NCBI GenBank assembly: GCA_028865345.1
Contig: JAGWKL010000007.1
Location: forward strand, 6,089 to 70,088
Reading direction: 5' to 3'
Length of the DNA stretch: 64,000 nt
DNA from: Candidatus Omnitrophota bacterium
GTDB lineage: Bacteria; Omnitrophota; Gorgyraeia; Zapsychrales; Fredricksoniimonadaceae
This document shows positions 24-15,300 of the stretch, one piece after another (positions within the stretch are counted from its first letter, which is position 1; every line of letters begins with the position of its first letter). The notes beneath the pieces are model-generated. The model did not search any database and was not told the origin of the DNA. It saw nothing but the letters and a program-made list of their open reading frames with translations. Made by a program: the position numbers and the translations under genes.

Positions 24-2813
24 TCACGACCCTCCGGGGCCGCTTGAGGGCGAAGAGCCGATGCTGTTGCAATCCACAAACTGGATGCAATAATCGCTGT
101 CCCCGGTCCCTGAAGAAGAAGGACAGCTCCTGGATGCCACATACCTGGCGCAGGCACGGCTTTCAACACCCAAAGGAAGCAAAGCCGAGACCGCGGCGGT
201 ACAGTTCGCCTCATTGCCATTGGCGACGGAATCAAGCTGTCCGTCGCCGTTGTCATTAAGCATAAACGCCTGGCCCAGCGCTGTCCGGTCCGTCGACAAA
301 AAGTTTCCATTTTCCCATGCCAGCCCCTGCGCTGTCTGGGGCGTGAGGCCGAATCCTATGGGCGTCGCAACCCCGTACGGCGCGTAGGCCGTAGTGGCGC
401 ACGCGCTGAAAAGATCGGAGTTTTGGTTGGTGTTGGGGTTGTTGCCGACGGCATTGGGATTGCTGAACATGAATTGCCACAAGGAACGCCCGTTGGGAAA
501 TTTAATGGAACTGCCGTGGGGCTGGTCCCAGCGCTGGACTTCAACATACACATACCCGTCACGTTGGGTGAGCTCAAAATTTTGGGTGAACCCCCAGTCA
601 GAGGTGTACGACCGGATCCACGGCAACCTGTCCTGAAATGCGCCATAGCCTTGACTGCGTCCCGGCGCATAGGCCTGGACCTTGACAAGGTGCGCGCAGC
701 CCACAGGCACCGAGTTTCCGTTACTGTCCGTGGTAGTGCACGCCGGCTGGCCGGTGGTTGACGGTTTGTCTCTCCAGCCATAAACGACCCAATTGGGCAA
801 TGCGCCGGGGGAATTTGTACTGCTCGTGCCATTCGCACGTTCGTACATGATCTGAGAGGCAGGTCCGCCATCGGCACATGCATTCCCGCTGCAAGGCTTG
901 AAGAAATTATGAAGGGCATTGTCCGCCTGGGCGGTGATGCGCTCAAGGGCCACGGCCCTGGTATAAGCGTCATTCAAATAAGCATACCTCAAAGCGAATT
1001 TCGGGGCCTCATCGGTAAACAGGGTAATATTGTCCTGCGTCCATTGGGCGAAGCTCCCCGAAGAGTTGGGGTCGCAGGATGCCGGGGCGGTGGTATACGC
1101 GGGCGGAGTGCCGCATGCCGCGTTGCTTTCAGAAGGGCATACGCAATTCCCGTTGCTGTTGCTGGGGGAACCTTTATAACACGCCAGCAGGGAGCGTCCC
1201 AGGACCGACGAAGAACACTCGCTTGGCAATGGCAGGCTCCTGGAACACGTCGAACTGCCGCATGCAACTCCACTGGCGCATTTATTTGACCCGCCGCTGC
1301 CGCAGACACTGCCGTCCGCACATCCCCCGGTCACCACATTCAGGCAGGTTTGATAATTGTAAATGGGACCGTACTTGTATTGGCCGGCCGCCCAGTCAGC
1401 ATAACTCTGCGTACAGGGAGTGCCGTCATTGCATTTATCGGCGCCTCCGCTGCCGCAGGCGCTGCCGTCTGGGCACACATTACATCTGTTGGGATCGCTG
1501 TCAAATGCAGGCGGCGATATAACGGAAGTCCCTAACACGTCAGGCTGGCACTGGTCCGGCAGGTTTGTCACGCAGCTTTTATTGACTGTCAGGGAACTCA
1601 GGCAGGCGGAATAATTGTTGGCAACCCCCGTTGCTGTTGTTATAGCCCCCGGACCCGCATTATATTGCAGGCAGGCCAGGACATGGGGCAGGTCTCCCCA
1701 ATTTCCTGTGGGGGCATTTTGGTTGATATAATATTCTTCCGTAGTGCCTGTTAAATCGGACTCTGCAGGAAGGCACCAGACAGCATTCTCAGAAAACCAG
1801 TTCTGTAAGCTGGAGGAATACTTATGGCTTACTGAACCTGCGGGTGCATAGCTGTTGGAATTAAGCCAATTTGTAATCACCGTGTTCCAGTCCTTGAGTT
1901 TATCCACCGGCGGACTGACGTAGGGATTGTAAATGCTCAACAGGCGTCCCGGGGAATTTAACTTACAGGAGTCTTTATTGCACGTACAGTCGCCTGTGCC
2001 GTTGGGACCGCTGCACACGGTGTCTCCGGCCGGGCAGCCTCCCGTGCATTGGGGGGCGATCCAGTCGGCGATCTGGTCATATTCACTGTCAAAGGTGGAA
2101 TTGGTGACATCCAGGGTTTTGGACAAAAACGCCTGGGCAAATTTATCGAAGTCCGAAAAAGTATGCAGGACACTGTTCAGGCTGGAAACGGTGCTTTGGG
2201 CAGAGGGCGGATTGGGCGGCGCCGGCGGCGGAAATGCACAGCCGGAACCGCTGCATGTGTTGTCAAACCACTCACACTCACCGTCGGGGTAGGACGATGT
2301 GCTTTCATTATACGGCCATGTCGTTGAACACATCTGGTTGTCGCCCGCTACCCAATAGTCGCCCGGACCGCTGCCCAGAGAACCGATCTGTCCATAGTAT
2401 GAAAATGTTCCGTCCAGCGCGGGATTGGAGGCATACGGGGCAGGGGGGGTGTAAAACGCCGGGTCCCCCACTTTATCGATGACGCCGTTGAATGTCGTTG
2501 ACGATGAACCCGCGCCGGCGCCGAGGTCAGCGGTTATGCTATAGGTCCCATTGGGAGCGTTTGTCCAGTCATAGGTGAAGGTATTGGTGGGGGCGCTGCT
2601 GCTGACCGAGGCCAAAACATTCCCATTATCATAGAATGTCACTTCACTGACATTGCTGTAGGTTGCGGCTGTGAGCGTGATTGTGGCCCCTGACGGATAA
2701 TTGATATAATCGCTTGACACGCAGACCGGCGTTGACGACGATGGCGTACAAGCCGCCTGCACCGGTGCCTGGGCTGAGAAAAACAAGGCCATAATCAAAA
2801 ACCAATATCGCAT
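24..2813 (-). CDS. Secreted cysteine-rich repeat protein (~929 aa), putative pilus-associated adhesin
   Basis: Track ORF 24..2984; likely true start at MRYWFLIMALFFSAQAPVQA (signal-peptide-like) 57 codons in, preceded by AAAGGAATGGGAAAT RBS-like sequence. Ser/Thr/Asn/Gly-rich with repeated C-x-DGS-x-CGSGG-x-KC-x-G-x-x-C modules. Last gene of the Tad-like locus. Confidence 0.5.
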   Translation of the reverse strand: MRYWFLIMALFFSAQAPVQAACTPSSSTPVCVSSDYINYPSGATITLTAATYSNVSEVTFYDNGNVLASVSSSAPTNTFTYDWTNAPNGTYSITADLGAGAGSSSTTFNGVIDKVGDPAFYTPPAPYASNPALDGTFSYYGQIGSLGSGPGDYWVAGDNQMCSTTWPYNESTSSYPDGECEWFDNTCSGSGCAFPPPAPPNPPSAQSTVSSLNSVLHTFSDFDKFAQAFLSKTLDVTNSTFDSEYDQIADWIAPQCTGGCPAGDTVCSGPNGTGDCTCNKDSCKLNSPGRLLSIYNPYVSPPVDKLKDWNTVITNWLNSNSYAPAGSVSHKYSSSLQNWFSENAVWCLPAESDLTGTTEEYYINQNAPTGNWGDLPHVLACLQYNAGPGAITTATGVANNYSACLSSLTVNKSCVTNLPDQCQPDVLGTSVISPPAFDSDPNRCNVCPDGSACGSGGADKCNDGTPCTQSYADWAAGQYKYGPIYNYQTCLNVVTGGCADGSVCGSGGSNKCASGVACGSSTCSRSLPLPSECSSSVLGRSLLACYKGSPSNSNGNCVCPSESNAACGTPPAYTTAPASCDPNSSGSFAQWTQDNITLFTDEAPKFALRYAYLNDAYTRAVALERITAQADNALHNFFKPCSGNACADGGPASQIMYERANGTSSTNSPGALPNWVVYGWRDKPSTTGQPACTTTDSNGNSVPVGCAHLVKVQAYAPGRSQGYGAFQDRLPWIRSYTSDWGFTQNFELTQRDGYVYVEVQRWDQPHGSSIKFPNGRSLWQFMFSNPNAVGNNPNTNQNSDLFSACATTAYAPYGVATPIGFGLTPQTAQGLAWENGNFLSTDRTALGQAFMLNDNGDGQLDSVANGNEANCTAAVSALLPLGVESRACARYVASRSCPSSSGTGDSDYCIQFVDCNSIGSSPSSGPGGS

Positions 2814-2833
2814 ATTTCCCATTCCTTTTGCCG

Positions 2834-5575
2834 CTAACTGCAAACTCCTGTGCCGAGGTTGCATGATTGTGTCGAAGTGCAACAATTGGTACTGGCGCCG
2901 CACTGGGTGGTGCCGCTGGGACACCCGCATGAGCCGCTCTGACATATTTCTTGACCCTGGCATACATGTCCGCAAGTGCCGCAATTGTTGTTATCATTCA
3001 ATGTTCCGCTGGCACAGGCACAGGCGTTGCTCTGGCATGTTTCTCCGTTTTGGCACACCTTTCCACAAGTACCGCAATTGTTGTTGTCGCCTAAATTGCC
3101 GCCGGCACATTTACATTCGCCTGTTTGGCTCCCGCTTGCCTGAGTGCCTGTAATCGTCCAGCTGGTGCCGTTAAAGGTTGTCTCGTAGCATGTTTGGCCA
3201 TTCGTGCACGCACCCGTGCCGCAGGTGACTCCGCAGGCGTCTTTGCCGCAATTGTCAATTGCAGCACAATAGGAATAATTGTTAACGATCATGGTGGTGG
3301 CATATGCGGTATATCCGCAACTATGGTCAGTCGGATTGGTGGCGCAATAGTTGGTTACAGCACCGGTTGCGCCGCCGGTATCATAAGATTGTACCTCCGA
3401 AAGAGGGGCATCGGTCGCTACAGCCGTCACGTTATAATTCCCCGCCATCGTCACTGTACAAAGCCCGGTCGTTTTGTTGGTCACACTCGTAGGGATTGCA
3501 AATTGGCCGGGATTGGTGTTGATTTGCACAATCGGAGCCGGAAACGCCGGGTTCGGCGTGAACAGGGTGTCGTCTAATGTGCTGGTGCTTCCCGTTGGAT
3601 CGGTCATATTAATATCAACCCCGGTAATGGTGCCGGGGCTGGGTTCAGAGGCTGTGGCGAGCATGCTGATTGAGGAAGAAGGTCCCGCTGTATAGATGTT
3701 CCCGCTGAAGGGCGAATTGATCACCATGGAAATGTTGGGTCCAACGACAATGGTCAGCGTGTTCGATGAAGAGCCGCTGCCGCCGGCAAGGCTGTCGGTC
3801 AGATAATTGACACAGCAATCCTCTCCCGAGCAGGAATAGGGCAGGGTCAATTGGTTTAAATCCGGAAAATCCGCGGACGAAGGAGAGTTGACTGCGGGGA
3901 CTGTGCCTCCGGAATACGTGCCTGCGACACACCAATGGTACCAGGGCTCCGGCGTCAATGTAAAATTGTTGCTTTGGGTGGTATTGATACTGTCCACCGC
4001 CGGACTGAAAAAATTCGGAGTTTTATACGCGTTTGGACTTGCCAACGGATCCGGGAATGCCGGATTGGTGTCCATCAGCCAGAAGAAGGGATAGACCCCA
4101 TTAGGGAACGCCGGTGAGGTCCCTTCGACCGTCATTCCACCCAGGGGCACTGTGGTCGGCGTTGATTGCATCAATTGCTGGTCGCGGCCGTATTGGTCCA
4201 GGAATGACAGCCCCCTGCTGTATTGTTGAAAGCCCGAATCGTAAATAAAGGGATAGGAAGAACCGTAAGGATTGTTCGATGTGCATTGCGCCGGCGCTGC
4301 CTGACCCGCATTATCCGGGTCCCCGACCAGGGCCGAACAATCCGTATTGATGTACGCGTTGGGGTTGGTGGCGCAAACATCCGGAAGGGTCCCTCCTGCG
4401 CTCACATAGGGAAGGCAGGAAGAGGGCCGCAAAGGCTTGTATGTCGTCTTTCCGTTGTCGGTGACGGCCACAGCCACCGGCTGGCAGCATGGATTGCAGT
4501 AAGGATTGCTTGTGTCCGTGCAGGAATCATTTAACTGAAAACTAAAGTCATTGTTCACCATCACCCTGCAAGAAGGTGCCGACAAGGAAGCTGAATAAGT
4601 GGTATACGCAGCGTTGCAGGAATTGCAAAGCGGATCCAACGCGACAGGCTGACCGGTATTGGGATCGGTGAGGTTACTATGCTCGTATACGTTCTGGGCG
4701 CATGTCACCTGCGCCGGTATAGGCCCTGTACAGGCAGGGTCTGCGGAATCCACGGCACAATAATCGATGCCCGCATTCGGATTGAAGCAGCTCGGGTTAA
4801 GAGGGACCCCTGTCTGGCTTGTTTTGCCATCCACGCTTCCACTGTCCGTATAATTTTGCTGGCAGGTCTGGCCGTTGATGAATTCACTCAATTGATTATA
4901 GAAAAAAACCAACTGTGGAATAAAGCCGACGTTTTTGTTCAGCATTTTCAAACGCTCGGTATAAAAAAACCCGAACCGCGAGATGGTGTCGTTGGCCCTG
5001 CCGCTGGTGACCCCGAATTTTCCATTGGCATTTTCATCGAAATAATCCGTAATATTGACCTGGTCCGTGGTCGCGCCCTGCAAAGCCGGCCCCACGGCCC
5101 CTTCATAAAACTGCTGTGTGATCGGCTGGCTTTTCTGCAACTTGTTCCATAGTTCGCACATCCCGGGCTGGATCACAGTCAACTGAAGCACCAGGGTCAC
5201 AATAGACATGACAAGGGCCAGGGTCAGGCAGGCCCCCAGAAATGTGGTCACCAGCGGAGTCGCCGATCCCCAGGAAACGATCTCTATGACTATGATGATA
5301 ATAATGACTATCACCATGATCAAATCCATCAATAAGCCGCTCATTCCCGATATCTTGTTGGTGTCCTGCAAATTCGTCTGCTTCTGCATTTCACCATAAC
5401 TGGCCACATCCGACGCAAGCAGGGATGCGGCCTGGTCGGCGTCCACGGTCAACAGGCTTTTCATCTGGGCGATGCGCCCCCAGTTGTAGGTGATGGCCAG
5501 GAAAATCAGCGCCATCGCCGATAATAAAACCAGGATGAGCGCTGTCTGTCCTTTTTTATCCGTTGTGTTCATCAT
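2834..5575 (-). CDS. Tad-domain (TadG-like) giant protein, 913 aa, with cysteine-rich C-terminal modules
   Basis: N-terminus KKGQTALILVLLSAMALIFLAITYNWGRI matches the Tad/TadG N-terminal TM-anchor pattern. Long Asn/Thr/Ser/Cys-rich extracellular region. C-terminus has duplicated NNNCGTCGxVCQxGExCQS Cys modules. Confidence 0.5.
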   Translation of the reverse strand: MMNTTDKKGQTALILVLLSAMALIFLAITYNWGRIAQMKSLLTVDADQAASLLASDVASYGEMQKQTNLQDTNKISGMSGLLMDLIMVIVIIIIIVIEIVSWGSATPLVTTFLGACLTLALVMSIVTLVLQLTVIQPGMCELWNKLQKSQPITQQFYEGAVGPALQGATTDQVNITDYFDENANGKFGVTSGRANDTISRFGFFYTERLKMLNKNVGFIPQLVFFYNQLSEFINGQTCQQNYTDSGSVDGKTSQTGVPLNPSCFNPNAGIDYCAVDSADPACTGPIPAQVTCAQNVYEHSNLTDPNTGQPVALDPLCNSCNAAYTTYSASLSAPSCRVMVNNDFSFQLNDSCTDTSNPYCNPCCQPVAVAVTDNGKTTYKPLRPSSCLPYVSAGGTLPDVCATNPNAYINTDCSALVGDPDNAGQAAPAQCTSNNPYGSSYPFIYDSGFQQYSRGLSFLDQYGRDQQLMQSTPTTVPLGGMTVEGTSPAFPNGVYPFFWLMDTNPAFPDPLASPNAYKTPNFFSPAVDSINTTQSNNFTLTPEPWYHWCVAGTYSGGTVPAVNSPSSADFPDLNQLTLPYSCSGEDCCVNYLTDSLAGGSGSSSNTLTIVVGPNISMVINSPFSGNIYTAGPSSSISMLATASEPSPGTITGVDINMTDPTGSTSTLDDTLFTPNPAFPAPIVQINTNPGQFAIPTSVTNKTTGLCTVTMAGNYNVTAVATDAPLSEVQSYDTGGATGAVTNYCATNPTDHSCGYTAYATTMIVNNYSYCAAIDNCGKDACGVTCGTGACTNGQTCYETTFNGTSWTITGTQASGSQTGECKCAGGNLGDNNNCGTCGKVCQNGETCQSNACACASGTLNDNNNCGTCGHVCQGQEICQSGSCGCPSGTTQCGASTNCCTSTQSCNLGTGVCS

Positions 5576-5835
5576 TGGCTCGAGTTCCCGTTAGTAATGC
5601 TTCCGTGATAAACCGCGGACATCGGCAAAAAATAATAATCGTCTTGAGAGTTCAACTCATTCGACGGATCCAGGCTTTTGGTCAGTGATATGTCCTGGGC
5701 CACGCGCCGGTTGGCCAGATCCAGCCCCGCCCAGCGGAAAACCATCACCAGGCCGTAAACTATGAACATGATCACCACCACCGCGAAGGTGAATTCAATG
5801 GTCGACTGAGCTTTGGTGTCCCGTACGTTCATCAA
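5572..5835 (-). CDS. TadE-like pseudopilin (87 aa)
   Basis: N-terminus TKAQSTIEFTFAVVVIMFIVYGLV is a TadE/TadF-like prepilin-like hydrophobic segment with conserved E. 4-nt overlaps with both neighbours. Confidence 0.5.
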   Translation of the reverse strand: MMNVRDTKAQSTIEFTFAVVVIMFIVYGLVMVFRWAGLDLANRRVAQDISLTKSLDPSNELNSQDDYYFLPMSAVYHGSITNGNSSQ

Positions 5836-7817
5836 TTCCCTACCTTGTACCGCCCTGATGTGTTTGTCGCCCAGAAATGCCCGCGCAAGTCTTCGATGCG
5901 GCTGCGGACAAAAATCTTGTTCTGGGAAAGATCATAACATGTCGAGGCAATGTTGGTCTGAGAACTAAAACAGTTGTTGGTTATTCCGTCGACACAAACT
6001 TCCACAGGGTTGGGGGTTTTTCCGTCATTGCCCACCGTGGCAAGCGGCGTCGTTCCGTTGCAAAACCGCCCGGTATTATTGCTCAGCTGGATGACCCGCT
6101 GTATCAGGTCGATCGAGTCCTTTTTGTTTTGGCTGCGCACAAACTGGTCGGTTTCAGGGTTATACATTTTCCCATCCTGGATCAACAAATACGTCCCCCC
6201 GCGGTTATCGGTGGCATTGGAGCTGTTCTTGGTAAAGGTAAACACCTGGGCGTTGGCCTGCAAACCGGGCTGCGGACCGCAGGAATTGGCGTCCCAAGCC
6301 CCGTCAATGTCTCCACCATCCGGATCTTCATAAGAAACCACCGGATAGCCGTTTGAGTCCGTGGAAAGATTATAAATGGTGACTTCCTTCAGCCTTCCGT
6401 CTATATCATAGGTCGGATAAACATGGTTGGAACTGCTTAGCCCGATCTCTGCCGCCGAGGTCCCTGCCGTGGCAGCCCATTGCCAGGCAACGTAGGCGCG
6501 CATGCAACTGCCGGGAGGATTGCATCCCGGATTGGGGAATTGATTTATCACGCCCGCCACCGATGTCGATGTTGCTCCATTGCTCCCATAGACCCCCATG
6601 CGCAAAAGATCATACTGCATGACCCCATTGATATTGGTGGATGCTCCAAGGCCGTCGGTGGTGGGATTGCCCCAATAATCAAGCAAAGGCATGTCCGTGG
6701 ACAGTTCTTTATTCATACAAGCTGAAGTGCCGTGCGCAGTACAAGTGGGGGCCGAAGTGCTGAAGGTCAAATTCGAAGAATTGGCCGACCCTCCCGCCCC
6801 GCCGGGATTGGCCACCAGGGTATAAAACAATTTGTATTGCCTGCTGCCCTGCTCGATAATGCCCTCGATCGCCGCTAAATATCCCACAGCCTGTTGCGCA
6901 GTGAGGTGAAATACATTTTCATAAAGCCCTTCAAACGTCGTCCACGGCGTTTGATTCCATGATGCGTTGACCGTCGCTTGAGAGGTAGCTTCATCGCACT
7001 TGCTGGTTGTCGTAGGTGAAATGACATGGGCATTGGCCAGTTCCGTGAAAATAGTACAGGCATTGTTGGCCTCTTGCAGCTCTCTTCCTGCCGTGGTGGT
7101 CGCGGTTATCGGCGCTACCGGAGGATCGTTGGTAACAAGCGCGCTTTCCTTAAGAATGCTCTGGCCTCCCCACTCCCTTTGATTGCGGCAGGTCTGGTTC
7201 ATTTTGCACTGGGCCTCGGCTTTTTGCTGGCAGTCCTGCGGATTTCCGCCGGCCGTCAGGCAATCTTCCTGCTCCTGAGCGGAAGATATCGGCTGGCTGT
7301 TTTTATCGCACATAGCGGTACCGCCCTGGCCCGGCGGATAAATGGTTTTCCCGGCAACATAAGAAGCCATGGTAAACGGGAAATGCTGCCCGTCGATATA
7401 CACATCCATGATGGGCAAACTATTGTCGATATCGGAGGGACTATTGTTATCGATGGGATAAAGAAGGTTATAGGAAAAGGTTCCCGAACCGGAGACCATG
7501 AATGGTGTGCGGTCCAAAGCCCCGTATTTGCCGAAACCGGGAACAAGTCTGTCTTCTACAAAAAGCACCGAGGCGCTGTTATGCGCGGTGACCTGCGGGC
7601 TCATGCCGGGATTGGCCTTGGAATCGTTCCACGAAGCCAGCATGGCCATGCGCATGGCCTTAAAACTGATGTCCTGCTGATAGCCGTTGCTCACAGCAGT
7701 GCGGATGATCGTCCCCAAAATAAAAATGAGGATGGCCCCGAACACGGCAAGCTCGGTGACGGCCTGTCCCGCCGCGGGTGCGGGGCCAGACGCTTTTTGA
7801 AGGTCTCGCTTGGACAT
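5832..7817 (-). CDS. TadG/TadE-like large pseudopilin (~662 aa)
   Basis: Track ORF 5832..7886. Start taken at MSKRDLQ (ATG at 7815-7817, ATGA overlap with the stop of the upstream pilin gene, AGGTAGGG RBS). N-terminus AGQAVTELAVFGAILIFILG is a TadE-like motif. Confidence 0.5.
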   Translation of the reverse strand: MSKRDLQKASGPAPAAGQAVTELAVFGAILIFILGTIIRTAVSNGYQQDISFKAMRMAMLASWNDSKANPGMSPQVTAHNSASVLFVEDRLVPGFGKYGALDRTPFMVSGSGTFSYNLLYPIDNNSPSDIDNSLPIMDVYIDGQHFPFTMASYVAGKTIYPPGQGGTAMCDKNSQPISSAQEQEDCLTAGGNPQDCQQKAEAQCKMNQTCRNQREWGGQSILKESALVTNDPPVAPITATTTAGRELQEANNACTIFTELANAHVISPTTTSKCDEATSQATVNASWNQTPWTTFEGLYENVFHLTAQQAVGYLAAIEGIIEQGSRQYKLFYTLVANPGGAGGSANSSNLTFSTSAPTCTAHGTSACMNKELSTDMPLLDYWGNPTTDGLGASTNINGVMQYDLLRMGVYGSNGATSTSVAGVINQFPNPGCNPPGSCMRAYVAWQWAATAGTSAAEIGLSSSNHVYPTYDIDGRLKEVTIYNLSTDSNGYPVVSYEDPDGGDIDGAWDANSCGPQPGLQANAQVFTFTKNSSNATDNRGGTYLLIQDGKMYNPETDQFVRSQNKKDSIDLIQRVIQLSNNTGRFCNGTTPLATVGNDGKTPNPVEVCVDGITNNCFSSQTNIASTCYDLSQNKIFVRSRIEDLRGHFWATNTSGRYKVGN

Positions 7818-8134
7818 CAGTTCCCTACCTGTGTAGTGCCCGACTTCGTTTCCAAAGTATTCGACGTATCGATCCGGCTTGTCCATTCGCCGTAGGCGCT
7901 GTTATAGCTGCCCGGAGCGACCTGGACAATGGACGTCGCATTGGACTGTGTCGCGTACAGTATATTGGAATTGACCCATTGAGGGTCATACTGGCCGCCT
8001 ATCTCATCTGACGATGATTTCCAGCGGCCCTGAATGCCCCTTTTGACATAGTCCTTCATGGCCACCAGCACTCCGAGGATGATGATCATGATCACCGTGT
8101 ATTCCAGAATTGTCTGTCCTCGTATGTTTCGCAT
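7817..8134 (-). CDS. flp: Flp-type pilin paralog 8 (105 aa)
   Basis: MRNIRG|QTILEYTVIMIIILGVLVAM: Flp prepilin motif G/XXXXEY followed by a hydrophobic helix. Confidence 0.65.
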   Translation of the reverse strand: MRNIRGQTILEYTVIMIIILGVLVAMKDYVKRGIQGRWKSSSDEIGGQYDPQWVNSNILYATQSNATSIVQVAPGSYNSAYGEWTSRIDTSNTLETKSGTTQVGN

Positions 8135-8149
8135 AGGCCTTGGTCCTTA

Positions 8150-8506
8150 TTATTGTGGTGAAAACCCTCCGTTGGTAATGGTGTTGGTCATTGTCACAGA
8201 AGCCTCACTATAACCCGTCGTCGCCATGAAATGAGTGACGCCGCTGCCATTAATATACCCCGTTTCCGCGTTCCAATCGCCGGTGGTGGCGCCCATCTGC
8301 GTATTCGATGCCAGCATAAATCCTGTCTGGGGATTGGTAAAATCCTGGTCGGCGTTCTGCTGACTGCCCACCTGGTCCGCCGTCACCTTGACCAGGCTCT
8401 GCACCCCGCGCTTGATGCCCGTGCCCATATAATAGAGCGCCACCATCACCAGGCTGACGAGGATGGCGTATTCTACTATTGTCTGTGCATTGCGGGTAAA
8501 AACCAT
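8150..8506 (-). CDS. flp: Flp-type pilin paralog 7 (118 aa), Ala at -1
   Basis: MVFTRNA|QTIVEYAILVSLVMVALYY: Flp motif with Ala instead of Gly at -1. Confidence 0.6.
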   Translation of the reverse strand: MVFTRNAQTIVEYAILVSLVMVALYYMGTGIKRGVQSLVKVTADQVGSQQNADQDFTNPQTGFMLASNTQMGATTGDWNAETGYINGSGVTHFMATTGYSEASVTMTNTITNGGFSPQ

Positions 8507-8515
8507 TCAGTCCTT

Positions 8516-8935
8516 TCATGTCGCACAACCGGTCCCGTCACTGCAACACGGCGGCGGATTGGAACTGCTGCATACCGGAGGTAATTGGTGGCTGATGGAG
8601 GATATGTTGCTTGTGTCATTCACGGAACTGATATAGACCGCTCCCAGTTCCCCTGCGCTGCCGTTTGTTATTCCTTGATGATTGTCTGAATTCCGTTGCA
8701 CATCCGAGAAGGTCTGCATGTAATACGGTTCATATCCCCAGGAAACCCCGTTGGAAGCGGCCTGGCAATTGACATCGCAGGCATTGGCCGCCATCTCGAT
8801 CGCAAAGTTCCTGGCATCATGGATCCGCGCCTCAAAGGCCCTCCTCACCAGCACGGTCATAGCTGTCAGGGCCGCAACCACTATGAAGAAAACCATGACA
8901 TGCTCTGCCAAAATCGCTTGACCTTTGTCATTCAT
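8516..8935 (-). CDS. flp: Flp-type pilin paralog 6 (~139 aa) with Cys-rich C-terminus
   Basis: Track ORF 8516..8962 begins at a TTG. Better start is ATG at 8935 (MNDKG|QAILAEH) with AAGGTGAGG RBS. Motif has H instead of Y. C-terminus PPVCSSSNPPPCCSDGTGCAT. Shares ARIHDA and YEPYYMQ motifs with the pilin at 9613..9981. Confidence 0.55.
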   Translation of the reverse strand: MNDKGQAILAEHVMVFFIVVAALTAMTVLVRRAFEARIHDARNFAIEMAANACDVNCQAASNGVSWGYEPYYMQTFSDVQRNSDNHQGITNGSAGELGAVYISSVNDTSNISSISHQLPPVCSSSNPPPCCSDGTGCAT

Positions 8936-8968
8936 GCCCCGCCTCACCTTCTCCAAAGACAAACGGCC

Positions 8969-9166
8969 TCACATCCCATTCGCCGCATTTTCCTGCAAGT
9001 AGGTGGCTGCGTTGAGCATCCCTTGGGTCGTCTGGTTGAACACGCTGTTCAAGCTGCTTTGAAAAGAACCTGTCCCCTTGCCTGTCGTGAACAGAACGAC
9101 CACCACGATCACGGCCGTGACCAGCAGGATGTATTCCACCAGGCTCTGACCTTTACGTGCGCGCAT
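8969..9166 (-). CDS. flp: Flp-type pilin paralog 5 (65 aa)
   Basis: MRARKG|QSLVEYILLVTAVIVVVVLF, canonical Flp motif; AGAGGA RBS. Confidence 0.7.
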   Translation of the reverse strand: MRARKGQSLVEYILLVTAVIVVVVLFTTGKGTGSFQSSLNSVFNQTTQGMLNAATYLQENAANGM

Positions 9167-9197
9167 GCGTTTGTCCTCTATTGACGGCCTATATCAA

Positions 9198-9223
9198 CGA
9201 GGGGGGAAGAAAATCCCCCCCTC
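9198..9223 (-). promoter_or_regulatory. Intra-operon GC hairpin between flp4 and flp5
   Basis: Perfect inverted repeat CGAGGGGGG-AAGAAAAT-CCCCCCTCG (9-bp G/C stem) in the 70-nt gap between the pilin genes at 9236..9574 and 8969..9166. Confidence 0.4.
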
Positions 9224-9235
9224 GTTTGGACTCTG

Positions 9236-9574
9236 TTAGGCGGCGGTGTTCCCTCCCCAGAATTCCTGCTGGGTGTTAAGGATGACCGAGTTCTCCGTCG
9301 TGTTGGTCGATTCACCCGACCCCAAGATGGAAGTCGAGGAATTTCCTGCGTTGAACACTTCTTCTGTATCGCTGGAAGTGTTGACGATCTTGATCACGTT
9401 GGTATTGCCGTCAGAATACTGGTCGCCGATATCGTCGGCGGCGCTCTTCAGGCGCCCCTGCACGCCGCGTTTGATATAGACCTGAAGGGTCAGCAAAGCG
9501 CCGACCACAACGACGATCATTACCGAGTATTCCAGGAAACTTTGACCGCGTTTTTGGTTAAGATATTGCAACAT
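9236..9574 (-). CDS. flp: Flp-type pilin paralog 4 (112 aa)
   Basis: MLQYLNQKRG|QSFLEYSVMIVVVVGALL; GGAGG RBS upstream. Confidence 0.7.
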   Translation of the reverse strand: MLQYLNQKRGQSFLEYSVMIVVVVGALLTLQVYIKRGVQGRLKSAADDIGDQYSDGNTNVIKIVNTSSDTEEVFNAGNSSTSILGSGESTNTTENSVILNTQQEFWGGNTAA

Positions 9575-9612
9575 AGGATTCCTCCTTAAAGATATATCGT
9601 TGAAGTCTTAGG

Positions 9613-9981
9613 TTATTCAGACTGTTGATTCCCGCTGTCATAATTACTGTACGTTTGATTCTCAGACCCGGTCCTGATCCTGTTGTTGGCGGAATCCTGT
9701 GCGACCAAGTCGTGCCCTAAGCGTTTAGCACTAACGCTGTTGCTGGATACGTCATAATTGCTCTGCATGTAATATGGCTCATACTGCGTGTCATTGCCCA
9801 GACCGATATCCGAGTTGCCGGTGGCATTGGCCATATACGTTGCTGCATCGTGGATACGGGCTTGTATGGCGCGCTGGGCATAGGTCTGCATGGCAATGAT
9901 GCCTGCGACCACCAGGGCGATCAAAAGCGCGTATTCCGCGAAGTGTTGTCCTTTTTTATTCTTAAGGAAATTTCTCAACAT
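9613..9981 (-). CDS. flp: Flp-type pilin paralog 3 (122 aa)
   Basis: MLRNFLKNKKG|QHFAEYALLIALVVAGII; GGAGG RBS. Shares ARIHDA..YEPYYMQ motifs with paralog 6. Confidence 0.7.
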   Translation of the reverse strand: MLRNFLKNKKGQHFAEYALLIALVVAGIIAMQTYAQRAIQARIHDAATYMANATGNSDIGLGNDTQYEPYYMQSNYDVSSNSVSAKRLGHDLVAQDSANNRIRTGSENQTYSNYDSGNQQSE

Positions 9982-10027
9982 AAGTTCCTCCTATATTAGT
10001 TCGTAGAGATTTTGTTTAAGCTCCTCG

Positions 10028-10276
10028 CTATTGAGTCGGATTGACACTATAGCCAGAGGGAGCGCCACTGTCGGTACTGGTGTATGCGCCATGTGAACCG
10101 GCATACTGTGACGTTTCACTGTTCATTTCCGTCACCGCCGCGTTGTAGGTGCTGTTGAGCGTGTTCTGGAACGGACCGTTTTTGCTGGTCACAAAGGCCA
10201 CAATAACGATAAGGACCGCGGTCACAACCAGGATGTATTCCACCGTGATTTGACCTCTTTTGTTCTTTATATGCAT
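10028..10276 (-). CDS. flp: Flp-type pilin paralog 2 (~82 aa)
   Basis: Track ORF 10028..10288 starts MEGIM, but GGAGGGGATTATG shows those codons are the RBS. True start is MHIKNKRG|QITVEY at 10276. Confidence 0.7.
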   Translation of the reverse strand: MHIKNKRGQITVEYILVVTAVLIVIVAFVTSKNGPFQNTLNSTYNAAVTEMNSETSQYAGSHGAYTSTDSGAPSGYSVNPTQ

Positions 10277-10348
10277 AATCCCCTCCAAAATTCCCGTACT
10301 GCATCCTCCACGTAAATTAAACGCCGTGTAAAGGAACAGGGAATATAG

Positions 10349-10504
10349 TTAATTCAACGAATCCTCAGTAATCATCTTCTGTTGGGCTTGCACGGAACGG
10401 AACACGTAGGTGCTCAACAGCGCCAAGGCTGCTGAGATCAAGGCCACGACGATCGCGTATTCGATCAAGTTTTGTGCTTTGATACCGTTTAATTTTCGGA
10501 TCAT
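10349..10504 (-). CDS. flp: Flp-type pilin paralog 1 (51 aa), not in ORF track
   Basis: Manually translated: MIRKLNGIKA|QNLIEYAIVVALISAALALLSTYVFRSVQAQQKMITEDSLN. 156 nt ATG..TAA, below the 60-aa cutoff of the track. Canonical-size Flp with Ala at -1. First gene of the pilin array. Confidence 0.6.
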   Translation of the reverse strand: MIRKLNGIKAQNLIEYAIVVALISAALALLSTYVFRSVQAQQKMITEDSLN

Positions 10505-10548
10505 CGCCCCTTACCTTTACGTGCCAGAAGATCAATTAGACCTTCCCC

Positions 10549-10567
10549 CTGCTTGTTGTTCAAGCAG
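10549..10567 (-). promoter_or_regulatory. Inverted repeat in 5' leader of first flp gene
   Basis: CTGCTTG-TTGTT-CAAGCAG (7-bp arms) about 45 nt upstream of the flp1 ATG. Confidence 0.3.
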
Positions 10568-10606
10568 GAGCGAGGAAAAACTAAAACACTAACTGGTCTT
10601 TCATCT

Positions 10607-10630
10607 ATGTAAAAGCCCCTAAGGGCTGTC
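10607..10630 (-). terminator. Putative rho-independent terminator after the 373-aa HTH gene
   Basis: On the minus strand, AGCCC-TTAG-GGGCT stem followed by TTTTACAT. Short 5-bp stem. Confidence 0.35.
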
Positions 10631-10733
10631 GGTACAATTGATGTTTACTTTGGTAGAAGTATGCCATATATAATAAAGCCTGTCAACCCCGCGGAAACAA
10701 AAATAACCCGCTCCCCGATTCGGCGACTAAAGC

Positions 10734-11855
10734 CTAATCTTTTAAAATTTCGACCTTAACCAGCCTATTTTGGTCATCATGCAGATACATCGCATTTAAT
10801 TTCTCTGCGGCTTCATTGAGCATGGTAATATTCTCATAACTATTTGTCGTTAATATGTTTATTATATTAATTTCACTGTTGACCTTGTCGAATCCTTTCA
10901 ACTTTAATATATTATCCATAACATCATCGTTTACATTATGTTGTGTAAAAAAAATGTCTTTTGCTCTCTCTGAAACATTCTTTTTATAGCTCTCCACAAA
11001 TACAATATCTTTTAACATAAAAACTCTTTTACACTCCACAATTTCATCGAAATATGCTATAACATTGTCTTTGTAATCCACTATCAAAATTTTTGTAATT
11101 TTGAGCCCGGCTTGAGCATCCATGCAAGATTTAAAAAGCATTTCATCCGAAACTCTATGAACTACCAGCGGCCGGATATTATTAATAAGCCCGTCCACTG
11201 CTTCCATGATGCAACGTTCAATGGGGAGCGGCAGATCAATAAAGACCTCCTTGTTGTTTTCCAAAACAACCTTGATCCCTTTACAGTATGTCAGGCAATA
11301 TTCCCAATCCGTTCCCTTGACGTTCTCTTCTGAGAAAATTCCTAAATCCCAAAGTGCCGCCCTTAAAAAAACCCTTCCGGCCCCGTCGTATTCCGCAGAA
11401 ATCTCAAAACTTTCGGGCTTGATTTGCCGTTCTTCTGTAATCGTCGGGGCTTTTTCTTCTTCCGTCGATCCGGGGCCGGAGGACGGAGGCTCTTTATGAA
11501 CGTTTAGATCCTGGCCGCCCGCCTCCATTTCCTGAGAAACGCCTTTTGCCGAATCCGGCAGTACGCTGACTTCAGGAATAATTGTTTCCGGCAGCAATTT
11601 GACTTGGGAAAGGCTGGCCTGAATCTGCCTCTTCTTCTCTTGAGGTATTTCAAACTTATTTTTTGGCTTACGGCCGCGAGGCGTCATGATGCCCGCCTCT
11701 TTGAGCACATCATGGACCGACGATTTGGAAAGTTTAAGTCCGAACTTTTGAGAGGCTGATTCAGCTAATTGGCGGCAGGAAGCAAGAGGGTTGGCTTGTC
11801 GCTGGTTTATGATGAATCCGACAACCTCTTCCTTTAACTTATAGGTAACACCCAT
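10734..11855 (-). CDS. Hypothetical protein with N-terminal HTH-like domain (~373 aa), AT-rich
   Basis: Track ORF 10734..11951. The first 32 codons are AT-junk overlapping the XRE gene, so start taken at MGVTYKLKEEVVGFIINQRQANPLASCRQLAE (HTH-like, ~70 aa). Then an acidic low-complexity linker and an unrecognised ~230-aa C-terminal domain. GC content far below surrounding genes. Confidence 0.4.
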   Translation of the reverse strand: MGVTYKLKEEVVGFIINQRQANPLASCRQLAESASQKFGLKLSKSSVHDVLKEAGIMTPRGRKPKNKFEIPQEKKRQIQASLSQVKLLPETIIPEVSVLPDSAKGVSQEMEAGGQDLNVHKEPPSSGPGSTEEEKAPTITEERQIKPESFEISAEYDGAGRVFLRAALWDLGIFSEENVKGTDWEYCLTYCKGIKVVLENNKEVFIDLPLPIERCIMEAVDGLINNIRPLVVHRVSDEMLFKSCMDAQAGLKITKILIVDYKDNVIAYFDEIVECKRVFMLKDIVFVESYKKNVSERAKDIFFTQHNVNDDVMDNILKLKGFDKVNSEINIINILTTNSYENITMLNEAAEKLNAMYLHDDQNRLVKVEILKD

Positions 11856-11938
11856 AAAATTCCGTTCATAATAATGTCCAGTCTGGACATTATTATAACA
11901 AAAAAATATGGAGAAACAATTTAAAAAAAGGAATGATT

Positions 11939-12217
11939 TTATATTTCCCACATAACAATATTTTCAGAACTACTTTTTGCTTCTTTGTTCTGTTTGTGGT
12001 TTGATTTGGATCGCAGAAGATTTACAGGAGTGGTTTTGAGGGCCTTGGCGAGTTTTTCAATATTCAGCAGGGTAATATTTATTTCCGCCCGCTCTATCAT
12101 TCCGATGTAATTCCGATGAAGGTCCGCAAGTTCGGCAAGTTTTTCCTGAGAAATCCCTTGCCTGCGCCGCTCCATCCGTATCTTCTTGCCGAAGCTTATA
12201 AGTAATCTTTTATTCAT
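11939..12217 (-). CDS. XRE-family helix-turn-helix transcriptional regulator (92 aa)
   Basis: RRRQGISQEKLAELADLHRNYIGMIERAEINITLLNIEKLAKAL is a classic Cro/C1-type HTH. AT-rich, co-located with the 373-aa HTH gene. Confidence 0.6.
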   Translation of the reverse strand: MNKRLLISFGKKIRMERRRQGISQEKLAELADLHRNYIGMIERAEINITLLNIEKLAKALKTTPVNLLRSKSNHKQNKEAKSSSENIVMWEI

Positions 12218-12525
12218 TGATTTCCCTAAATTTGCGTGTAGTATATATATTTACTTTCATTATTTCTACACAGCATCGTGTGGACTATTATATTAGTCAC
12301 AACATTAAGATAAGATGAAAAACAGGGTGAGGAGCAAAAGCGGAGAAAAGCGTGACTCTTCCCAAATCACGGCGTGAAATATTTAAGATCGACCAAATGA
12401 AAATGGTCTGGAAAATCGGGGACAACGAAGTCCGCTGCGACGGCGCGGTCCACTATGTCTGGGTCCCCTCTGCGGACCATGTGCAGCAAATCGGCCCCTG
12501 TGACTGCAAAAGCAAGTCCAAAAAA

Positions 12526-12861
12526 TCATAGCCGGACCTGGTCACCGATCCGTGTTTGAGAAGCAATGATGGTCCCCGCCGGCAATTCGATGGCGTAGGA
12601 TGCCCGGAAGAATACCGGCGACAGGCGGAAAGGTTTGATCCCCTCGCAAAGCCCCACCACCTTGTCCTTCCGGTCGCAAAAGATCACATCAATAGGAAAT
12701 TTCATAAAAAACATATGGATGGATTCGCAATGGGGAATGACCAGGGCGTGATTCAGGGGGAGTTGGGTCCTTCCAAGCAATCCCTTCGAACGCTGCCAGA
12801 AATTCCGGGCGGTTTCGACGGAGGAGGCAATAACGGTGTCGCGGGTTGCGTTACAGATCAT
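12526..12861 (-). CDS. DUF192 (COG1430) family protein (111 aa)
   Basis: Sequence family resemblance only. 4-nt overlap with the upstream CpaE-CpaF gene suggests translational coupling. Confidence 0.45.
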   Translation of the reverse strand: MICNATRDTVIASSVETARNFWQRSKGLLGRTQLPLNHALVIPHCESIHMFFMKFPIDVIFCDRKDKVVGLCEGIKPFRLSPVFFRASYAIELPAGTIIASQTRIGDQVRL

Positions 12862-15023
12862 ACGCCGGCGGGGGCCTCAAAAATGGTCTTGCTGATCGAA
12901 ATCCCGCGGGTGGTCAGGTCTTCAAAACATTTGGGCACATAGCCGGTGGCCGCGTATTCCCCCATGTTCCGGCCTTCTGCGTCGACGCCTTTCTGGACGA
13001 ACACAAAGATGTCCTTGATCTCCGGAAGACCTTCCACCATCTTTCCGGTCAGCTCGGAGATCTGGGTCACCTTGCGCGACCCGTCGGAAAAACGGTTGAT
13101 CTGCACAATGATGTGGATCGCTGAGGCGGCCATCTCATAAATAGCGCGCAGCGGCAGTTCGATGCCCGACAAAAGGACCATGGACGACATACGCGACAGG
13201 GTGTCCCTGGTCGTATTGGCATGCAGGGTCGTCAGGGACCCGTCGTGACCGGTATTCATGGCCTGCAGCATGTCCAGCACTTCGGGCCCGCGGCACTCGC
13301 CGATGATGATCCTGTCCGGACGCATACGCAGCGTATTGACGAAAAGCTCCCTGATCGTCACCTTGCCCCGGCCTTCGATGTTGGCCGGACGGCTTTCCAG
13401 CCTCGCCCAATGTGTTTTGACCAGGCGCAATTCCGCTGCGTCTTCGATGGTGATAATGCGTTCATTGTCCGGGATGAAATGGGAAATGATGTTCAGAAGC
13501 GTCGTTTTACCCGCGCCCGTCCCGCCGGAGACGACGATGTTCCTGCGGCCGATAACGCAGGCGTTCAGAAAATCCGCCATGGGCTGCGAAAGGCTTTTGA
13601 ACCGCGTCAGCAAGTCCTCAATGGTATAGCGGTCCTGTGAAAATTTACGCACGGTGATCATGGGCCCGTTCAGGGACAACGGCGGGATGATCGCGTTGAT
13701 ACGGGACCCGTCGGACAGGCGCGCGTCGACCATCGGGGTCGATTCGTCCACACGACGGCCTAAAGGAGCTATGATACGGTCGATCGTGGCGCGGACCTGA
13801 TCGTTGGAAATAAACCGCTTGTTGGTCAAATAAATCTTGCCGTTTTTTTCTATGAAGACCTCGTCTTTATTATTGACCATGATGTCCGTGACGCTTTCGT
13901 CGGCCAGAAAGTCTTCCAGAGGGCCAAGCCCCAAAGCTTCGTCGACGATTTCCTTGACTATTTTAGCGCGTTCCTCATGGGTGGAAAGGAAGGTCCCCGA
14001 GGCCTCCGCCAAAAGCTCGGTGACGACTTTTTCGGCGGCCCTGCGCAGGTTGGCGACTTGGGCAGGATCATTCAAGACCTCCTGCGACATTTTCTGCAGG
14101 TTCATGCGCTCAACCAAACCGTTATGCACGGCGCGCTTGACTTTAATGACCTCGTCTTCCTCTTTTTTGAAATCGACCCCGGCATCGACGCCCGCAGGCG
14201 TGATGCCGAATTTCTCCCAAAAGGCGTTGCTCTTTTGGCCCGATTCATCCCCGGTGGCACGCACCCTGAGGACATCGCTGGCCTGCACATACAGCTTATC
14301 ATCGTTGAGCGCATGGGCGATCTCAAAAAAACATTCCGACACCTTTGCCTTCGGGCTGTCCATGACACAGGGAACGCCCCGGTTGAGGGCGAGGCCCACC
14401 GTCTTGCCGTCAGAAGGTATCAAAGAGAAAACGTCGCAGGCCAGGGCTTTCTTGACCTCCTGCCAGGCGACACCGCCGCGGCTTTCGGCGCGGTTTAAAA
14501 TCAGGTTTACCATCTTCAACGGATAATGCAAGCCCTGGAGGATGTCCAGGCAGGTCTTCACCTGGTAAACCGCCAGGACATCGGGAGTGCCGACCAAAAA
14601 AATGAGGTTGGAAGAATCCAGGACGCTGATGAAGCTTTCACTGAAGGTGCTTCCTCCGTCGACAATAATGCAGTCGAATTGAGGGGCCGCCTTCTTGAAA
14701 AACAGACGCAGATTATCGGAGGTGATGTGGCCGATCTGCTGGGGGGTTCTTACCGCAGGCAGGAAACACAGGCCGCTCGGGTGGGGGATGCATTTGCCCT
14801 TCAGCGTCTCAGGCGATCTCTCCAGGTCCGCCAAAATATCGACCAGGCAAAGCGACGGTTGCAAATTCAGCATGCGCGACATGTCCTGGGAAGCCTGAAG
14901 ATTCAGGTCAACGATCAGTGTCTTTTTGCCCTTAAGGCTAAGCGCACAGGCTATATTGACGGCAATAAAGGTCTTTCCAACCCCTCCTTTGTTGCCGAAT
15001 ATGGTAATGATTCTGGCCGCCAT
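12858..15023 (-). CDS. cpaF: CpaE/TadZ-like ParA ATPase fused to CpaF/TadA secretion ATPase (721 aa)
   Basis: N-terminal ~260 aa: IITIFGNKGGVGKTFIAVNIACALS is the MinD/ParA deviant Walker A typical of CpaE/TadZ. C-terminal ~460 aa: GGTGAGKTTLLN Walker A, GECRG, TGHDGSLTTLHAN His-box are T2SS-E/CpaF/TadA hallmarks. No receiver-like domain. Confidence 0.75.
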   Translation of the reverse strand: MAARIITIFGNKGGVGKTFIAVNIACALSLKGKKTLIVDLNLQASQDMSRMLNLQPSLCLVDILADLERSPETLKGKCIPHPSGLCFLPAVRTPQQIGHITSDNLRLFFKKAAPQFDCIIVDGGSTFSESFISVLDSSNLIFLVGTPDVLAVYQVKTCLDILQGLHYPLKMVNLILNRAESRGGVAWQEVKKALACDVFSLIPSDGKTVGLALNRGVPCVMDSPKAKVSECFFEIAHALNDDKLYVQASDVLRVRATGDESGQKSNAFWEKFGITPAGVDAGVDFKKEEDEVIKVKRAVHNGLVERMNLQKMSQEVLNDPAQVANLRRAAEKVVTELLAEASGTFLSTHEERAKIVKEIVDEALGLGPLEDFLADESVTDIMVNNKDEVFIEKNGKIYLTNKRFISNDQVRATIDRIIAPLGRRVDESTPMVDARLSDGSRINAIIPPLSLNGPMITVRKFSQDRYTIEDLLTRFKSLSQPMADFLNACVIGRRNIVVSGGTGAGKTTLLNIISHFIPDNERIITIEDAAELRLVKTHWARLESRPANIEGRGKVTIRELFVNTLRMRPDRIIIGECRGPEVLDMLQAMNTGHDGSLTTLHANTTRDTLSRMSSMVLLSGIELPLRAIYEMAASAIHIIVQINRFSDGSRKVTQISELTGKMVEGLPEIKDIFVFVQKGVDAEGRNMGEYAATGYVPKCFEDLTTRGISISKTIFEAPAGV

Positions 15024-15140
15024 AATGAATTTTTATTGTACCATATTTTTTGATTTTGTCGCAGATAAAAAAGAGGTCGCTTTGCCTTCCCCCTAACTCG
15101 GGAGGTAGCGTGTCCCTTTGATGAAATTCTAATGGCAAAA

Positions 15141-15300
15141 TTCTTTCTCGGCGTCGGCTCGCAGGGGGGCAAATTTCTTTTGAACATCAGCTTGCACAGG
15201 GGTAAATTCTTTTTGGACATCAGCCTGCAAAGGGGCGAATTCTTTCTCGGCGTCGGCCCTCAGGGGAATAAATTCTTTCTCAACATCTGCCGCCTGCAGT
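15141..15300. repeat. 33-bp tandem repeat (~4.8 copies) forming 11-aa repeats in ORFs on both strands
   Basis: Units TTCTTTCTCGGCGTCGGC..CAGGGG..AAA alternate between A/B subtypes (A-B-B-A-B). Minus frame gives ADxEKEFxPLx repeats (track ORF 15129..15611). Plus frame gives GKFFLxISLxR repeats (track ORF 15132..15476, ATG start, GC3 ~74% versus ~45% on the minus frame). Confidence 0.6.

Follow-up and report, generated by a model that had tools for sequence, protein, structure and literature searches.

What are eight tandem genes for small pilin-like proteins doing in one bacterial genome, and do they form a fixed set of subunits or a variable repertoire? The question is raised by a 64,000-nucleotide (nt) stretch of DNA from a Candidatus Omnitrophota bacterium (GenBank assembly GCA_028865345.1, contig JAGWKL010000007.1), referred to here as the window, in which eight small open reading frames (ORFs), labeled W1 to W8, follow one another on the minus strand at positions 7817-10504. 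Omnitrophota are widespread, ultra-small, and thought to be predators or parasites. A preliminary description of this DNA read the eight genes as Flp-type pilins that make up a combinatorial or phase-variable repertoire. We propose that W1 to W8 probably supply the pilins of a Tad-like (type IVc) filament machine that is conserved in Omnitrophota. They carry class III signal peptide motifs, they lie among Tad genes, and their orthology and order are conserved in related lineages.

The eight ORFs of the preliminary description are present with the positions and sizes it gave them (Table 1), and the same eight genes appear in the public NCBI gene calls for three near-identical contigs. Exact-sequence look-ups match all eight proteins to metagenome-assembled genomes of Candidatus Omnitrophota (Omnitrophica). 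Each gene encodes a basic leader of 5 to 11 residues, with Ala at -1 in W1 and W7 and Gly in the other six. The predicted mature proteins start with Gln at +1, followed by three residues, Glu, an aromatic residue or His, and an uncharged hydrophobic stretch. The ORF translations and an eight-way alignment bear out the cleavage-site strings that had been quoted, with Gln +1 in all eight proteins; in this alignment, Gln +1 and Glu are the only invariant columns. W6 has four residues before Glu, which places Glu at +6, and its orthologues share this one-residue insertion. When a class III signal peptide is defined by a short basic leader ending in Gly or Ala, approximately 20 hydrophobic residues, and Glu at +5, all eight proteins have one, with Glu at +6 in W6. 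The motif is invariant across 53 orthologues of W8 and W4. Several of the proteins are two to three times the length of Flp, the ARIHDA..YEPYYMQ motif shared by two paralogues belongs to W3 and W6, and the Cys-rich tail belongs to W6, all in agreement with the preliminary description. A purine-rich Shine-Dalgarno-like sequence lies 5' of each gene, and the gaps between genes are 9 to 72 nt.

We also scanned the whole 64-kb window in six frames for the pattern [GAS]/x-x-x-x-E-[YFHW] (the slash marks the predicted cleavage site) followed by an uncharged hydrophobic run. The scan matched seven of the eight array genes, the ORF at 5572-5832 in the same locus, and one probable false positive; W6 escaped because of its insertion. 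Since the matches are concentrated in the locus, the array is a gene cluster and not a product of chance.

By their motif, we place W1 to W8 in the class III signal peptide/type IV pilin superfamily. Their N termini are intermediate between those of bacterial Flp and archaeal Epd-type pilins, in keeping with a published proposal that an Epd-like archaeal system gave rise to Tad systems (PMC6668835). In a Pfam scan at gathering cutoffs, W2 (26.8 bits) and W5 (25.8 bits) exceeded the 23.7-bit cutoff of Class_IIIsignal (PF04021), and no match to this model was reported for the other six proteins. None of the eight reached the 32.2-bit cutoff of Flp_Fap (PF04964): W1 scored 18.7 bits, W3 scored 16.2 bits, and the other six had no match. 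For W4, W6, W7, and W8, the scan gave no pilin family at all. As a positive control for Flp_Fap, Firmicutes G/QGM[VA]EYGL genes of three comparison loci (L010, L013, and L018) scored 39.6 to 42.3 bits. An NCBIfam scan of W1 to W8, W9, and W11 returned noise only. In NCBI, the product name is "class III signal peptide-containing protein" for W2 and W5 and "hypothetical" for the other six; JGI automatic annotation gives the orthologues the name "Flp pilus assembly pilin Flp" or "UPF0333 family." The label "Flp-type" is apt insofar as the proteins are class III pilin-like, lie in a tad-type locus, and have orthologues with Flp names, but as a family assignment it is loose, with none of the eight at the Flp_Fap cutoff and W2 and W5 in PF04021.

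The preliminary description had noted that every predicted mature pilin of the array begins with Gln. We examined 80 loci taken from GTDB species genomes with the fused TadZ::TadA ATPase as query, 77 of which (L007 to L083) we treated as outside Omnitrophota. In these 77 loci, 55 of 74 short Flp-like genes beside related ATPases have Gln at +1, including the Firmicutes genes that pass Flp_Fap, and in 32 of the 44 loci having such genes all of them do; Proteobacterial loci have the textbook G/[AV]TAIEY. Judged from these sequences, Gln +1 is a clade-wide property and not a peculiarity of this array. Ala at -1 occurs in W10, W13, and the W9 orthologues as well as in W1 and W7. Prepilin leaders otherwise end in Gly, with exceptions in archaea (PMC4471445, a review), and the Ala residues of W1, W10, W13, and the W9 orthologues suggest a peptidase with relaxed, archaeal-like specificity. 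The Gln at the N terminus of the Methanococcus maripaludis major pilin is pyroglutamate (PMC4471445), and by analogy the new Gln N terminus may be pyroglutamate here. Glycosylation of the Ser/Thr/Asn-rich tails is possible.

We compared the array across four close lineages, namely the window and three long contigs with W8 orthologues (L084, GCA_015233675; L085, JGI 3300029922; and L087, JGI 3300081832), and the more distant locus L006; loci other than L006 were assigned to Omnitrophota because they resemble this locus in gene order and sequence. When a profile of the eight proteins was used as the query, 1722 relatives were recovered; the top-scoring ones are approximately 105-113 amino acids (aa) long and without Pfam annotation. 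Each of W1 to W8 has a one-to-one orthologue at the same position in L084, L085, and L087, with 47-88% identity over the full length (47-80% for the best matches assigned by BLAST); the corresponding figures are 82% for the ATPase and 55-57% for the secretin. The preliminary description had named a lack of conservation in related genomes as grounds for rejecting the genes, and all eight prove to be conserved. Of the small genes, W1 is conserved best, with 80% BLAST identity between the window and L084 and the same residue in all four lineages at 36 of 51 columns; identities for other genes are 48-55% for W2, 65-74% for W4, 65-71% for W5, 47-59% for W7, and 66-69% for W8. Orthologues of W1 exist at L085 7250-7405 and L087 7629-7784 and are uncalled as genes in the public records; short pilin genes are therefore under-annotated.

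Conservation runs the full length of the proteins, Ser/Thr/Asn-rich tails included. The conserved tail motifs are QWT.R.D.SN..E.K.G..Q.G in W8, TNTITNGGF in W7, TQYEPYY in W3, and CD[VA]NC and LPPxC in W6, whose L085 orthologue has a Cys-rich extension of approximately 100 aa. Because they are conserved among orthologues, the tails are more than low-complexity sequence. The paralogues group into four subfamilies: W1; W2 and W5; W3 and W6; and W4, W7, and W8, to which W13, from farther along the locus, probably belongs. The W3-like family comprises 1379 clusters at 90% identity (64-83% identical among the top matches listed), and the W8/W4 profile finds 1063 clusters at 50% identity with E<=1e-10. 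In L006, an Omnitrophota locus with a 48% identical ATPase, eight tandem pilin genes lie directly after DUF192, among them long ones with Y-x-K-R-G-x-Q. Among all loci compared, the motif Y-x-[KRQ]-[KRH]-[GS]-x-[QYF] was found only in those assigned to Omnitrophota. The norm in the 77 loci outside Omnitrophota is one or two short pilin genes per locus, and an eight-gene cluster is therefore unusual there.

Two further contigs deserve mention. In L041, from an uncultured bacterium, seven tandem short pilin genes (716-3043; 52-130 aa, all G/Q..EY) precede rcpC, secretin, tadZ::tadA, tadB, tadC, and DUF192 genes; the long-pilin motif is absent, and by its sequence this locus is an independent case of pilin expansion. 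We excluded the 1.29-Mb contig L088 (contig_16581) from the comparison, as it has the locus in many short fragments, probably through frameshift errors of long-read assembly.

The same comparison bears on whether the array is a switchable repertoire. As hallmarks of phase variation, we considered simple repeats, an invertible promoter, silent cassettes, and varying presence or order of the genes, and the region and its relatives display none of them. The array region has no tandem repeats. Only two inverted repeats were detected, both long-range with arms 1.1 and 2.0 kb apart, and neither flanks the promoter; all direct repeats are accounted for by codons conserved in the cleavage motif and the YEPYYMQ motif. 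The paralogues are 18-36% identical to W1 in the eight-way alignment, which indicates old duplicates and not recent variable cassettes. W1 to W8 could in principle be alternative major pilins that are switched to vary the cell surface, given that the tandem paralogues are numerous and diverge in their C-terminal regions and that a hairpin and separate intergenic regions could permit differential expression. With one-to-one orthologues in a fixed order, conserved tails, this level of divergence, and no repeats suited to switching, we consider this the least likely of the readings discussed here, and the combinatorial or phase-variable repertoire of the preliminary description is not supported.

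The case for a Tad-type machine rests on the surrounding genes. Upstream of the array on the same strand are genes for a SurA-like peptidyl-prolyl isomerase (PPIase), RcpC, a secretin, a small ORF, TadZ::TadA, DUF192, a 92-aa XRE-type helix-turn-helix (HTH) protein, and W0. The order in L084, L085, and L087 is PPIase, RcpC, secretin, small ORF, TadZ::TadA, DUF192, an HTH protein of approximately 340-353 aa, and the pilins, followed by W9, W10, W11, W12, W13, TadB, and TadC. L001 and L002, two contigs nearly identical to the window, run past its left edge into W13 and the beginning of a T2SSF (TadB) gene. TadB and TadC, whose place is immediately outside the window on this side, are both present in L084, L085, and L087, with a single T2SSF domain each. 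With TadB and TadC read from these relatives, one locus contains TadA/CpaF, TadZ, TadB, TadC, RcpC, and an RcpA secretin, the set by which we define a Tad locus, and by this content we classify it as Tad-type (type IVc) with at least twelve predicted prepilin-like substrates. The eight-gene description was thus accurate and incomplete, since the locus holds at least four further proteins with prepilin-like N termini.

Three of these additional proteins are encoded directly behind the array. Start and stop codons overlap at W8/W9, W9/W10, and W10/W11 in all lineages compared, which suggests stoichiometric co-production. W9 is a candidate large tip or minor-pilin-like protein. The apparent likeness of W9 to W11 to TadE/TadF/TadG pseudopilins comes from the N-terminal motif and size; W11 also has extra hydrophobic segments around residues 80-135 and, at the C terminus, repeats of the form NNNCGTCG..C. 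In a check against TadE, TadF, and TadG, the sole pseudopilin-family signal was a TadF match for W2 at E=0.19. An exact-sequence look-up of W11 and W12 matched no record.

Giant ORFs lie directly after TadC in two relatives (42,417 aa in L084, from 20315; 14,234 aa in L087, from 19403); the window ends before the equivalent position. A preprint describes a conserved Omnitrophota locus upstream of giant genes that includes small class III signal peptide genes and lists a SurA-like PPIase within it (10.1101/2023.11.21.568195). The same preprint calls the locus type II secretion system-like. Type II secretion systems typically have numerous minor pilin-like subunits. W1 to W8 and W9 to W11 might then form a short periplasmic pseudopilus that pushes the giant protein or another cargo through the secretin, with no external pilus. 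We take this possibility seriously and think it unlikely, because the core is of Tad type and not Gsp type (a TadZ-TadA fusion, TadB and TadC as separate proteins, RcpC, and an RcpA-type secretin) and because extended Tad fibers are typically built from subunits of Flp size, such as the 41-aa mature one here. The pseudopilus and an external pilus are not mutually exclusive.

Structure prediction for the extended tails, which the preliminary description had recommended, succeeded in part. From a 53-sequence alignment, AlphaFold2 modeled W8 as a helix (residues 9-46) and a two-stranded beta-hairpin (57-77 and 80-100), with a mean predicted local distance difference test (pLDDT) score of 67 and values of 65-72 in the hairpin. 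For W3, a helix at residues 9-53 was confident, and the conserved C-terminal 70 residues were modeled as low-confidence coil (pLDDT ~50). A W3 tail that is conserved yet not predicted to fold in isolation is compatible with a segment that gains order when the subunits assemble. Foldseek matches of the W8 model to long beta-hairpins of pore-forming toxins were set aside as uninformative at this model confidence, and a PDB sequence search with the W8/W4 profile gave only a spurious avidin match.

Beta-strand complementation has been proposed in tip complexes of diverse type IV filaments, including Tad, and canonical Tad tips consist of minor pilins and a large TadG/CpaL protein (10.64898/2026.02.14.705861). 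Applied to this array by analogy, W3, W4, W6, W7, W8, W13, and W9 to W11 could assemble through C-terminal beta-strand pairing into an ordered hetero-oligomeric tip or adaptor that couples the Tad fiber to the giant protein of 14,000-42,000 aa encoded beside the locus. We offer this elaboration tentatively and regard it as rather improbable in this specific form. If it were true, the locus would be specialized for bringing a giant adhesin or lysin to bear on prey, and the long-pilin family, with >1000 clusters at 50% identity and no Pfam model, would be a new class of minor pilin.

For the filament machine that we favor, we infer the following course of events. The precursors would insert in the inner membrane via their hydrophobic N-terminal helix, and a prepilin peptidase encoded outside the window would cut after the Gly or Ala at -1, exposing a Gln +1 that perhaps then becomes pyroglutamate. 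The fused TadZ::TadA ATPase, together with TadB and TadC, would polymerize the subunits through RcpC and the secretin. W1 (51 aa, 41 aa when mature) would be the main fiber subunit; it is the probable major pilin because it is Flp-sized, most conserved, and encoded first behind the conserved promoter. W2 and W5 would make up another kind of short pilin. In the long pilins of the W3/W6 and W4/W7/W8 subfamilies, a conserved C-terminal segment, modeled as a beta-hairpin in W8, comes after the helix; these may be minor pilins of low abundance with a part in priming, capping, or decorating the fiber, and they would probably act with the translationally coupled W9 to W11. The five long pilins, W9 to W11, and W13 are probably minor or tip subunits. 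Drawing on the literature and the adjacent giant ORFs, we think that the most likely use of the filament is to attach the cell to prey or a host, or to display or export the giant protein encoded beside the locus in relatives. Omnitrophota Tad complexes have been tied to a predatory or parasitic lifestyle (PMC10066038).

Several observations weigh against this account. Six of the eight array proteins pass no Pfam pilin model, and W9 to W11 have no TadE/TadG model match (TadE PF07811 and Tad PF13400, checked to E<=1 for W9, E<=0.01 for W10, and E<=0.001 for W11). A prepilin peptidase was found neither in the 64-kb window, using a heuristic based on the hydrophobicity of multi-pass membrane ORFs, nor in the gene lists of L084 to L087. 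The structure models are modest (W8) or poor (W3 C terminus), and a Foldseek search of the W8 model against the PDB found no fold match at E<=0.001. The proposal of W1 as the major pilin draws on conservation, size, and position only, and our literature searches turned up no usable pilin proteomics for Velamenicoccus archaeovorus. Taken at face value, the lack of Pfam matches and a W3 C terminus that is not predicted to fold alone could mean that W1 to W8 are not filament subunits, but small bitopic membrane or secreted proteins with a class III-like anchor, such as cargo or accessory factors, that are processed and not polymerized; archaea do have prepilin peptidase substrates other than pilins. 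We judge this very unlikely in view of the invariant Glu +5, the pilin-like helical N terminus, the conserved place of the genes inside an assembly-gene locus, and the translational coupling of W8 to large prepilin-like proteins.

The region in front of W1 is itself conserved. Counterparts of the promoter-like site and leader lie at L084 7376-7548, L085 7083-7249, and L087 7458-7628, and an alignment with the window (214 columns) has a mean column identity of 83% with long invariant blocks. TTGACA and the TATTATATATGGCATACTT block, which contains CATACT, are invariant in the four lineages; the spacer is partly variable. Within the leader, a small hairpin precedes a U-run, and invariant TTCCTC is predicted to pair with the GGGGGAAGG block approximately 30 nt upstream of a Shine-Dalgarno-like AAGGTGA. 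RNAalifold predicted 26 pairs in the leader with no compensatory changes, from four sequences only. An Rfam scan of 7700-12400 found no match in the leader and one chance-level small nucleolar RNA match at the hairpin between W4 and W5. We think that the leader may be a regulatory RNA. The W4/W5 gap also holds strong hairpins of unrelated sequence in L084 (~8775-8925), L085 (~8520-8610), and L087 (~8865-8935), and the hairpin in the window was not scored as a canonical intrinsic terminator. The hairpins suggest a conserved attenuator or stabilizer dividing W1 to W4 from W5 onward; alternatively, a terminator is possible.

Among the neighboring genes, W0 lies in a stretch of low G+C content (10734-12217; 0.42 versus ~0.53 around it). 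We considered whether the low-G+C stretch at 10-12 kb, with its "transposase-like" HTH gene, is an insertion and rejected the idea for W0, as this gene is conserved at the same place in L084, L085, and L087. Because it is conserved between DUF192 and the pilin genes, W0 belongs to the locus, of which it is a possible regulator. Only the window lineage was seen to have the 92-aa XRE-type HTH gene, which appears lineage-specific. The secretin-TonB_C fusion occurs also in L006, L084, and L085. The ParA/TadZ-TadA/CpaF fusion is widespread among L004 to L083, with matches running from approximately residue 1-20 to ~715 in Bdellovibrionales, Firmicutes, Actinomycetota, Acidobacteriota, Chloroflexota, and others. 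A DUF192 (COG1430) gene is a consistent member of these Tad-like loci, beside the ATPase or after TadC (L006 10645-10986; L041 8889-9239). Just upstream of the locus, dnaA, dnaN, gyrB, and gyrA lie at 22122-29923, and GC skew changes sign near 28-32 kb; the pilus locus is therefore near a replication origin. The Tad locus of V. archaeovorus (CP019384, genome positions 12382-29832) is likewise reported near the origin (PMC10066038).

Table 1. Features of the pilin locus, with window positions except for W13; a slash marks the predicted cleavage site, and dots mark omitted residues.
Feature	Position	Strand	Description
SurA-like PPIase	18117-19139	-	first conserved gene of the locus
RcpC/CpaB	17241-18089	-	
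RcpA-type secretin	15430-17235	-	with C-terminal TonB_C
Assembly ATPase	12858-15023	-	fused ParA/TadZ-like + TadA/CpaF (T2SSE)
DUF192 protein	12526-12861	-	conserved beside the ATPase
XRE-type HTH protein	11939-12217	-	92 aa
W0	10734-11951	-	373-405 aa, weak HTH match; orthologues 51-55% identical in L084, L085, L087
Promoter-like site and 5' leader	about 10505-10690	-	TTGACA-17-CATACT, TG before second hexamer; leader ~150 nt
W1	10349-10504	-	51 aa, Flp-sized prepilin, MIRKLNGIKA/QNLIEY; candidate major pilin
W2	10028-10276	-	82-aa prepilin, MHIKNKRG/QITVEY; paralogue of W5
W3	9613-9981	-	122-aa long pilin, KKG/QHFAEY..ARIHDA..YEPYYMQ; paralogue of W6
W4	9236-9574	-	112-aa long pilin, KRG/QSFLEY..YIKRGVQGRLKS; paralogue of W7 and W8
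Hairpin between W4 and W5	9196-9227	-	13 bp, G+C-rich
W5	8969-9166	-	65-aa prepilin, MRARKG/QSLVEY
W6	8516-8935	-	139-aa long pilin, MNDKG/QAILAEH..ARIHDA..CDVNC..YEPYYMQ, Cys-rich tail
W7	8150-8506	-	118-aa long pilin, MVFTRNA/QTIVEY..IKRGVQSLVKVTADQVG..TNTITNGGF
W8	7817-8134	-	105-aa long pilin, MRNIRG/QTILEY..YVKRGIQGRWKS; stop codon overlaps start of next gene
W9	5832-7817	-	661 aa, ..PAAG/QAVTELAVFG; orthologues 38-49% identical, A/QA.TELAVFG; no Pfam family
W10	5572-5832	-	86 aa, TKA/QSTIEFTF; prepilin-like; no Pfam family
W11	2834-5575	-	913 aa, KKG/QTALILVLL; prepilin-like N terminus, more hydrophobic segments, Cys-rich C terminus
W12	24-2813	-	929 aa, Sec-type secreted, bacterial Ig domain, conserved locus member
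W13	L001 19960-20307		115 aa, KKA/VSIIEY..NYIQRGLY; past left edge of window in L001 and L002

An Omnitrophota Tad complex and a conserved secretion-like locus upstream of giant genes have already been published (PMC10066038; 10.1101/2023.11.21.568195). In their accessible text, these two sources do not sort the small genes into orthologous groups, analyze cleavage sites, or assign roles. We add fixed and ordered orthologous groups, four subfamilies, and approximately twelve prepilin-like proteins, together with Gln +1 as an apparently clade-wide property, a candidate major pilin, and a conserved leader and hairpin. As the apparatus with which Omnitrophota attach or attack, the Tad-like locus beside giant genes is the foremost candidate, and a fixed set of ~12 prepilin-like subunits with four small-pilin subfamilies, a candidate major pilin, and a conserved leader RNA offers concrete targets for experimental work. 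Tad pilins with archaeal-type features (short leaders, Gln +1, and Ala -1) also fit the proposed Epd-like origin of Tad. The result overturns nothing known; it describes an expanded form of a known kind of system.

Of known systems, the Tad systems of Aggregatibacter actinomycetemcomitans and Caulobacter crescentus share with this locus RcpC/CpaB, an RcpA-type secretin, TadA/CpaF with TadZ, split TadB/TadC, short pilins with a G/xxxxEY site, and extra prepilin-like proteins that include a large one (~600-900 aa). They differ in having one to three Flp genes with TadE/F/G, whereas this locus has eight small pilins and at least four prepilin-like proteins. Here, in addition, leaders are 5-11 residues long, Ala occupies -1 in several proteins, Gln at +1 replaces the A/V-T-A-I-E-Y of Proteobacterial Tad pilins, none of the proteins reaches the Flp_Fap or TadE cutoffs, TadZ-TadA and secretin-TonB_C are fused, and no peptidase gene was found in the locus. 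The archaeal Epd pilins and their PF04021 relatives, such as EpdE of Methanococcus maripaludis, resemble the array in the short basic leader, Gln +1, Glu +5, and several pilins per locus. W2 and W5 pass the PF04021 cutoff, unlike the other six proteins. In contrast to the archaeal EppA-dependent pilins, for which no EppA-type peptidase counterpart was identified here, the array belongs to a diderm bacterium with a secretin and RcpC.

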